This document shows positions 25,597 through 26,806 of a DNA stretch of 44,696 nucleotides, one piece after another (position 1 is the first letter of the stretch; every line of letters begins with the position of its first letter). The position numbers and the translations under genes were made by a program. The notes under the pieces were generated by a model that was not told where the DNA came from, did not search any database, and saw nothing but the letters and a program-made list of their open reading frames with translations. This DNA comes from Escherichia phage Pandora71: the sequence record PV841870.1, one strand, 5' to 3'.

Positions 25597-25617
25597 GGGG
25601 CCATGTGGCCCCTTTTC
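25597..25617. terminator. bidirectional rho-independent terminator
   Basis: GGGGCC / GGCCCC stem plus TTTT between convergent genes. Confidence 0.7.
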
Positions 25618-26582
25618 TAATACATGTTAGGGATGACGAGTAACGGGGTGGGTACGGTTATGTTGCGGTTAGGCATCTGGAATTGCTGCCGTGAGTAGTT
25701 ACCAATCACGCGATTTCTAGCCGCGCTAACCACGTTGCCTGCCATGCGTATCCCGTTCATTCTCACATGGTTGTATCCGCTGTTGTTCTCAATAAGCGCG
25801 CCGGTATATGAAAGCTGTACGAGGCTGTTACCGATATTCTGACCACCAGTGCCGATATTAATAACGGAATTGAGAACAAATGGCTTATTCACGGTAGAGA
25901 ACGTGACCTGCCCCTGGTTGTTCGTCATGGTTATACCGGTCCCCGGTGATGGCGGCGTGTTATTGAAGATAACCAAATCCAGGTCAACTTCGGCCCCTAC
26001 GTCGTCGATCCCACCATAAGACGAATTGCGGACGATGATATTACTGCCATCAAATCCTACCGACACGTTGCCGTTATCCCAGCGCGCGAACGGGATGCCA
26101 CCCACCGGCAGCGGCATACTACCGTTTACATGCACGCGCTGCGCGTATCGGCAGGTCATTAGTCGGGATACGTTCGATATCGCGGTGAAGTCAGTCGAGT
26201 TCGCCACCAGTAAGCCAGCATTGCGCGACCCAACCGGCAGCACTTCCATAATTATCCCCGCCCATTGCGGAAGACCACTGTATGCGTTATACGCGTCCGC
26301 ACCTCGTAGAATAATGCCGCTATCCCCGTTACGTTGTACAGACGTAACGTAGAATGGGTCCGGGAGTACCAGCGTTTGGTCGAAGACCTCAATCACTTCT
26401 ACCGGACGCGTGAGCGCAACGACAAGATCCGACCCTGGGGTTAGCGGAGTATTAATGGTCAGCGTCTTATCGGACTGGCAGCGCTGATCAAACGTATTGC
26501 AGTATGACGGAGCGCGAAGTCCGGCGGTTATCTCCATCACCGGCCTTCCGTCGTTGTAGTCTATAAGTATTCCAGCGCCCAT
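25617..26582 (-). CDS. Asn/Gly/Ser/Thr-rich protein, candidate receptor-binding or fibre protein (321 aa)
   Basis: ATG 26582 with GGGAGTGG RBS; beta-rich composition; downstream of lipoprotein gene on same strand. Confidence 0.55.
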   Translation of the reverse strand: MGAGILIDYNDGRPVMEITAGLRAPSYCNTFDQRCQSDKTLTINTPLTPGSDLVVALTRPVEVIEVFDQTLVLPDPFYVTSVQRNGDSGIILRGADAYNAYSGLPQWAGIIMEVLPVGSRNAGLLVANSTDFTAISNVSRLMTCRYAQRVHVNGSMPLPVGGIPFARWDNGNVSVGFDGSNIIVRNSSYGGIDDVGAEVDLDLVIFNNTPPSPGTGITMTNNQGQVTFSTVNKPFVLNSVINIGTGGQNIGNSLVQLSYTGALIENNSGYNHVRMNGIRMAGNVVSAARNRVIGNYSRQQFQMPNRNITVPTPLLVIPNMY

Positions 26583-26584
26583 AA

Positions 26585-26806
26585 TTACCACTCCCGAGAT
26601 TTAACTGATACCGTACCAGAGAAGTTGCCGTCACTATCCGCGGACAGGCCGGTGAATCGCATGTCAACATCCCCGGAAGGGGCTTTTTGCCCGTCAACGT
26701 AGCGTAACATGCAGCTACCGTAAGCGACCGTAATGCAATCGCCGTTGTTACGTACTACCGCACAGCCGGACAGAAGAACCGCACAAATCACAATTAATGT
26801 TTTCAT
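26585..26806 (-). CDS. small lipoprotein (73 aa), Cor/Llp-like superinfection-exclusion candidate
   Basis: signal peptide with lipobox LLSGC; RBS GGGGGA; opposite strand within tail module. Confidence 0.65.
   Translation of the reverse strand: MKTLIVICAVLLSGCAVVRNNGDCITVAYGSCMLRYVDGQKAPSGDVDMRFTGLSADSDGNFSGTVSVKSREW

Follow-up and report, generated by a model that had tools for sequence, protein, structure and literature searches.

Between its J-like tail-tip gene and its lateral tail-fibre gene, the genome of Escherichia phage Pandora71 (PV841870.1) carries two genes on the opposite strand, and the question that this locus raises is what such a pair does in the middle of a tail module. An earlier note, made from the letters alone, proposed that the first gene encodes a lipoprotein that excludes superinfecting phages from the phage's own receptor, and that the second encodes either the receptor-binding protein (RBP) or a new exclusion or anti-defence partner. 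We compare both proteins and their surroundings with profile, structure and genome databases; "the window" refers throughout to the whole stretch of DNA analysed (44,696 bp). Our analysis indicates that the pair is very probably an LptD-recognition module, consisting of the stand-alone RBP and the superinfection-exclusion lipoprotein of a Dhillonvirus-type siphovirus. The module has already been described genetically and structurally; Pandora71 is one more carrier of the LptD allele, and no new biology is involved. The practical outcome is a confident prediction of LptD as the receptor of Pandora71, together with a corrected annotation in which the labels "membrane protein" and "hypothetical protein" would give way to receptor-binding protein and the label "lipoprotein" to cognate exclusion factor. 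As LptD is an essential and conserved outer-membrane protein, LptD-binding phages and proteins matter for phage therapy, phage steering and the design of LptD inhibitors.

Several groups have characterized loci of this type. In Drexlerviridae, Dhillonvirus, Nonagvirus and Seuratvirus, Maffei et al. (2021, PMC8594841) defined "bona fide RBP loci" that follow gpJ directly and encode an RBP and a cognate superinfection-exclusion protein; they also traced resistance to several phages, among them Oekolampad, TheodorHerzl and AugustePiccard, to lptD. Dunbar et al. (PNAS 2025, PMC12685063) solved the Oekolampad RBP (RBPOeko) inserted in the extracellular face of the open LptDE lipopolysaccharide translocon, with an interface of about 1,700 Å² in which Gln299 hydrogen-bonds LptD Ser350. 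The LptD point mutations D352Y and Y671N abolished both RBPOeko binding and infection, and infection was found to depend on the LptD loops EL4/EL5/EL11, a dependence published for Oekolampad only. The same study solved Rtp45, the lipoprotein of phage Rtp, on the periplasmic side of LptDE: it carries a Cys30-Cys38 disulfide, and its hairpin extends upwards in the lumen, shifting EL4 by up to 20 Å and so leaving the RBP sterically blocked. Expression of the Oekolampad lipoprotein failed, and the published lipoprotein structure is that of Rtp45 only. According to a 2026 preprint (10.64898/2026.04.02.716166), this locus encodes RBPs of four unrelated families that are specifically associated with FhuA, BtuB, LptD or YncD, the DUF6453 family being linked to LptD at > 30% identity; the C-terminal tip of GpJ is likewise associated with specificity. 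Judging by its Table 1, the study of Lewis et al. (2023, PMC10373560) seems to take the J-like protein for the RBP, and it offered no information on this cassette. A literature search for "DUF6453" returned one mention, which was unrelated.

Layout of the locus

The window is the complete or near-complete genome of a Dhillonvirus-type coliphage, with nucleotide identities of 92-94% to bov22_1, JL1 and PTXU06, the nearest relatives standing at about 93%. Identity is 92-93% to bov22_1, PTXU06 and their relatives in the structural half of the genome, and 93.6% to the bov* phages and JL1 in the region of the gene pair. With the nearest genomes at only ~92-93% in the structural half, Pandora71 falls under the usual 95% criterion and may be a new Dhillonvirus species. 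No tRNA genes were found in the window (1-44696).

Both reverse-strand reading frames that the earlier note placed between the J-like and tail-fibre genes are present (Table 1). The 321-aa gene (963 coding nt) lies directly downstream of the gpJ homologue and convergent with it, the two stop codons being 27 nt apart; the layout by which the family is recognized is an ORF of about 930-960 bp directly downstream of a gpJ homologue. The lipoprotein gene sits directly upstream of the 321-aa gene in the same orientation, as it does in four other phages, and the layout as a whole is common to Oekolampad, HK578, AugustePiccard and Rogue1. In gene order, strand, coupling and position right after gpJ, the locus follows the "bona fide RBP locus" pattern.

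Table 1. Features in and around the gene pair (positions in the window)
Feature	Position	Strand	Basis
J-like tail-tip gene	22143-25589	+	matches FNIII-A_GpJ, Phage-tail_3, Phage_Tail_Tip
Last ~35 codons of J-like gene (C-terminal tip)	25485-25589	+	similarity break vs other alleles
GC-rich hairpin, likely bidirectional terminator	25594-25615	both	folding energy
Predicted receptor-binding protein gene, 321 aa, DUF6453 / Rtp44 / RBPOeko family	25617-26582	-	profile and PDB sequence matches
Predicted superinfection-exclusion lipoprotein gene, 73-aa precursor, Rtp45 / SEOeko family	26585-26806	-	profile and PDB sequence matches
Lipidated Cys15 codon	26762-26764	-	lipobox position
Lipoprotein signal-peptide codons 1-14	26765-26806	-	lipobox position
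Divergent intergenic region, lipoprotein / lateral tail fibre	26807-26887	both	conserved inverted repeat and weak candidate promoter
Lateral tail-fibre gene, Peptidase_S74 chaperone domain	26888-28504	+	domain match

For the 321-aa gene, the ORF lister starts at GTG 26591 (324 aa). We use ATG 26582, which agrees residue for residue with every homologue and with the solved PDB chain. This ATG sits 2 nt past the lipoprotein stop codon (TAATTATG) and has a GGGAG ~10 nt upstream, so that the two genes look translationally coupled.

The 321-aa protein and its receptor

Profile-HMM searches, which had been suggested as a check, place both proteins in known families with scores above cut-off. For the 321-aa protein, the match is to PF20051/DUF6453 (394 bits against a cut-off of 25, E 5e-118), with residues 4-297 on profile positions 1-290 of 291, and also to phrog_1265 (E 5e-118). 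Among all PDB sequences it has one match, 9RPT chain C (also deposited in 9RPW and 9RQI; E 3.9e-182), aligned over residues 1-321 on 1-321. This chain is Oekolampad (Bas18) gp25, i.e., RBPOeko, and the two proteins share 85% identity and 92% positives over 321/321 residues without gaps. The 48 differing positions occur throughout the protein and form small clusters at 237-240, 246-247 and 284-289, and Gln299, the residue that contacts LptD Ser350 in RBPOeko, is conserved. Even closer are the proteins of bov22_1, BF9 and CHD5UKE2 (98-99% identical; 98.8% for BF9), and Black et al. (2025, PMC13035648) include BF9 among the predicted LptD binders. The 2026 preprint counts a protein as an LptD binder if it shares > 30% identity, at > 99% coverage, with the RBP of a phage whose LptD dependence was shown experimentally; the Pandora71 protein has 85% to that of Oekolampad and 31-33%, over the full length, to those of AugustePiccard and HK578.

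We infer that the 321-aa protein binds LptD because it is 85% identical to an RBP solved bound to LptDE, because its relatives at 31-33% (AugustePiccard and HK578, of the Rtp44 type) also come from LptD-dependent phages, and because its near-identical counterpart in BF9 is itself a predicted LptD binder. The earlier suggestion that the partner could be the RBP is thus borne out by its likeness to the structurally solved, LptD-binding RBPOeko, and the alternative suggestion of a new exclusion or anti-defence factor gains no support: PADLOC gave no match. We dropped the defence reading on this ground and on that of the NCBIfam profiles, which gave only sub-threshold TraV lipoprotein signal-peptide matches for the gene pair.

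The likeness to Oekolampad extends to the whole locus. The two phages belong to the same genus and share the order, strand and lengths (321 and 73 aa) of the two genes (gp25 and gp26 in Oekolampad) as well as their surroundings, with J on one side and the intergenic region and lateral-fibre gene on the other; the RBPs differ at 48 positions and the lipoproteins at 5. A single-sequence AlphaFold2 model of the 321-aa protein was unusable (pLDDT 29, pTM 0.19), and a fold of two lectin-like beta-sandwiches with tip loops is implied only by the 85% identity to 9RPT_C. The protein had been described as rich in Asn, Gly, Ser and Thr, which holds in a mild form (together 34%, versus 26-28% in J and the fibre), and as lacking an N-terminal signal peptide (MGAGILIDYNDGRP...), which holds fully; its sequence contains neither a signal peptide nor a hydrophobic or transmembrane segment.

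This last result bears on how the family is labelled in databases. PHROGs files phrog_1265 under "moron, auxiliary metabolic gene and host takeover" with the annotation "membrane protein", and several RefSeq homologues are also called "membrane protein". The label is misleading, because the structure of the Oekolampad homologue has been solved, and it conflicts both with that structure and with the missing signal or transmembrane segment. If taken at face value, it would make the 321-aa protein a non-structural membrane protein or moron without a role in adsorption. We regard this as extremely improbable: the homologue with 85% identity is soluble and was solved on the outer face of LptDE, receptor specificity goes with this locus across families, and the labels appear to be propagated automatic annotations.

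A subtler alternative keeps the protein in the RBP family but gives it another target than its Oekolampad counterpart has, either some other outer-membrane protein or another LptD variant or set of loops. With 15% of residues differing from the solved RBP, and with DUF6453 homologues present in phages of Klebsiella, Salmonella and Cronobacter, some change of specificity is conceivable. However, family members down to 31-33% identity still use LptD, the 2026 screen found the family to be specifically LptD-associated at > 30% identity, and the cognate lipoprotein is 93% identical to that of Oekolampad; we therefore consider this alternative very unlikely. It is also unlikely that the Pandora71 allele is functionally distinct in a broader sense, with the 48 RBP substitutions altering the LptD loops or variants recognized, or the Oeko-type lipoprotein, whose structure is unsolved, engaging LptDE differently, or both. 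Changed recognition by the RBP could include escape from the common resistance mutations D352Y or Y671N/D, and a lipoprotein only ~38% identical to Rtp45 might give a different spectrum of cross-exclusion.

The lipoprotein and superinfection exclusion

The 73-aa protein is a lipoprotein as the earlier note had it, with an N-terminus (MKTLIVICAVLLSGC, then AVV) that carries the lipobox L-S-G-C, the cysteine at position 15 and an Ala at +2. In E. coli, a residue other than Asp at +2 directs a lipoprotein to the outer membrane; the Ala fits such sorting, and a Sec/SPII signal peptide with lipobox is present. The protein matches PF24052, "Phage_lipoprotein" (72.5 bits against a cut-off of 27, E 2.7e-20), with residues 3-73 on profile positions 8-80 of 80, and phrog_4281 (E 4.7e-31). 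It is 93% identical to Oekolampad gp26 (SEOeko), with 5 substitutions and no gaps, and it matches Rtp45 of phage Rtp in the PDB (9RPS chain D, E 2e-7). In the 9RPS_D alignment and in an alignment of five lipoproteins, Cys24 and Cys32 align with the Cys30-Cys38 disulfide of Rtp45. Pandora71 and the Rtp45-type proteins are only ~38% identical, with the lipobox, the cysteine pair and a C-terminal S-[RK]-E-W conserved between them.

A role in exclusion is proposed because the lipoprotein is nearly identical to SEOeko and matches Rtp45, including both disulfide cysteines. The earlier claim that it acts against the phage's own receptor gains support from the same 93% identity and from homology to a protein that sits on the periplasmic face of LptDE. 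In the mechanism that we propose, the infected cell would synthesize and export the lipoprotein and attach the lipid at Cys15, and sorting would bring it to the inner leaflet of the outer membrane. Like its homologue Rtp45, it would then bind the periplasmic side of LptD, with a hairpin reaching up the lumen and EL4 displaced, and LptD bound in this way would no longer accept the RBP. The presumed effect is to exclude superinfecting relatives and to spare progeny from being lost on infected cells and debris.

T5 Llp and Cor had been put forward as models for the lipoprotein. They hold as functional analogues: in T5 (pb5, encoded by oad, and Llp) and in the Cor systems of T1/phi80/N15, a stand-alone or tip RBP recognizes an outer-membrane protein, a small periplasm-facing outer-membrane lipoprotein makes this receptor unusable, and the two genes are adjacent. 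They do not hold as homologues. Their receptor is FhuA rather than LptD, they have no sequence relationship to the Pandora71 pair, and Llp works by long-range allostery whereas Rtp45 works by steric displacement of EL4; in addition, T5 oad and llp are divergent and not co-transcribed. One could still suppose that the Pandora71 lipoprotein is of the Cor or Llp type and inactivates FhuA, given a weak match to the Cor PHROG (phrog_1119, E 2.8e-4) and a gene context like that of oad/llp. We give this almost no credence. The phrog_1119 match covers residues 1-30 only (profile positions 1-32 of 78), that is, signal peptide and lipobox; BLASTP against T5 Llp aligns only residues 2-16 (E 0.013), again in the signal peptide; and the mature part matches PF24052 and Rtp45 instead. 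T5 pb5 showed no similarity to the 321-aa protein (best BLASTP E 0.23). Homology to T5 pb5/Llp and Cor was rejected, since the BLASTP and PHROG alignments are limited to the signal-peptide region or non-significant and neither Pfam nor PHROG gives a match to pb5/Llp.

Module boundaries and regulatory elements

Judged by sequence comparison, the LptD RBP family falls into clear subtypes. Pandora71 shares 85% identity with Oekolampad in the RBP and 93% in the lipoprotein; the corresponding values are 44% and 37% for Rogue1, 33% and 38% for HK578, and 31% and 38% for AugustePiccard. The SPN3UB RBP is 53% identical, and no lipoprotein was found nearby. Rtp44/Rtp45 of phage Rtp and the AugustePiccard/HK578-type allele belong to the two Pfam families found here and form a cassette that likewise converges with J, and LptD is the receptor for both; they differ from Pandora71 in forming a distinct subtype (RBP 31-33%, lipoprotein ~38% identity) with its own matching J tip. 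The Oeko-type allele is found in about 63 of roughly 155 related phage records (at least 80% protein identity).

Two comparisons between otherwise collinear genomes reveal that the receptor module is exchanged as a unit. Against HK578, which belongs to the same genus and carries an Rtp44-type LptD allele, nucleotide similarity (91%) ends at 25484 and returns at 26793. PTXU06 has an unrelated cassette of three reverse-strand genes (a type that a published legend associates with BtuB); in that comparison, similarity ends at 25398 and resumes at 26763, within the signal-peptide codons of the lipoprotein. The signal peptide of the PTXU06 lipoprotein (MKTLIMICAVLLSGC) is identical to that of Oekolampad and differs from that of Pandora71 by one residue; the mature parts of the Oekolampad and PTXU06 lipoproteins are unrelated. 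The tip of J varies along with the cassette. Its last 36 alignment columns are 91% identical to Oekolampad and 55% to HK578, versus 84% and 82% just upstream, and the HK578 tip resembles that of AugustePiccard, which carries the same RBP subtype.

From the similarity breaks and the co-variation of the J tip, we take the exchangeable unit to consist of the J tip, the terminator, the RBP gene and the mature part of the lipoprotein. The alignments show this unit to take in the last ~35-64 J codons and to end inside the lipoprotein signal peptide, which puts its two junctions in the J body and in the signal peptide with the promoter region. These boundaries, from J tip to lipoprotein signal peptide, indicate possible cut sites for retargeting a Dhillonvirus. 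In kind, the Pandora71 locus is like the "bona fide RBP locus" (PMC8594841), which is hypervariable, horizontally exchanged and made up of an RBP with accessory or superinfection-exclusion proteins.

The co-variation of J tip and RBP subtype also supports docking of the RBP on the tip of J, and from it we infer how the RBP is attached. The most conserved stretch of the RBP is its N-terminus (GILIDxNDGRPxMxITAG), and the N-terminal end has been suggested to face the tail (Black et al. 2025, PMC13035648). The 321-aa protein would thus use this conserved end to attach non-covalently to the J-like central fibre at its C-terminal tip, where it would serve as the terminal receptor-binding protein and bind LptD. 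In Citrobacter phage HCF1 (MN545971.1), positions 2501-2602 contain only the first 34 RBP codons (73.5% identical), lying between an upstream 83-codon hypothetical ORF (HCF1_45) and J in a record flagged UNVERIFIED_ASMBLY. The fragment is probably an assembly error or a deletion, and we dropped this N-terminal-only match as evidence for an N-terminal adaptor, since it is a truncated gene in an unverified assembly.

DUF6453 homologues are also found in a second arrangement. In Salmonella phage SPN3UB, Klebsiella phage RCIP0065, Cronobacter phage phiES15 and the E. coli podovirus ECBP2, homologues with 21-53% identity follow a J-like or tail-fibre gene directly and in the same direction. A search with an HMM built from five lipoproteins, combined with a lipobox scan, found no convincing Rtp45-type lipoprotein within ~1.5 kb of these four genes. 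This co-directional arrangement is a second DUF6453 architecture, which includes temperate phages and a Gordonclarkvirinae podovirus. Some records with related modules carry other host names, namely OQ221563.1 (Acinetobacter phage NJ01, 87% nucleotide identity across the cassette), MG065667.1 (Campylobacter phage A127, 61% aa) and MT360682.2 (Vibrio phage Vc1, 41% aa); given the enterobacterial nature of the module, these host labels look doubtful.

J and the RBP gene converge, and the 27 nt that separate their stop codons contain the hairpin of Table 1. Its folding energy is -17.4 kcal/mol (z -3.9) on the + strand and -16.7 kcal/mol (z -3.7) on the - strand; the + strand has a good U-run, the - strand a weak one. 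In the Rogue1 record, the depositors annotate a rho-independent terminator at the equivalent place. The proposal that the pair shares the terminator of J stands in part: the hairpin is stable on both strands, but a stock terminator scan of 25300-27100 called no terminator, this hairpin included. A shared bidirectional terminator for the J and RBP genes is plausible because of the stable hairpin between their stop codons.

A promoter of the cassette's own, which had been placed in the intergenic region, did not emerge from the scan. A stock search for minus-strand sigma-70 matches of at least 9/12 returned none in 26807-26887, and none in 25300-27100 either; the one candidate, found by eye, scores 8/12 on the minus strand, with TTGCAA (26866-26861), a 17-nt spacer and an extended -10, TGt-AATACT (26843-26838). 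The intergenic region has 96% column identity with Oekolampad and HK578 and contains an 8-bp inverted repeat, TGGTTGAG (26826-26833) and CTCAACCA (26850-26857), with arms 16 nt apart. The repeat brackets the candidate -10 and is kept in both Oekolampad and HK578, despite the other RBP allele of HK578; for the divergent transcripts of cassette and tail fibre, it might act as an operator or form a 5'-UTR stem. The tail-fibre gene beyond it has a 42-nt tandem repeat at 27423-27543 (2.9 copies, 92% match), which encodes a repeated IKTQTDQIKTDTQA coiled-coil segment in the fibre shaft and is a likely source of length variation.
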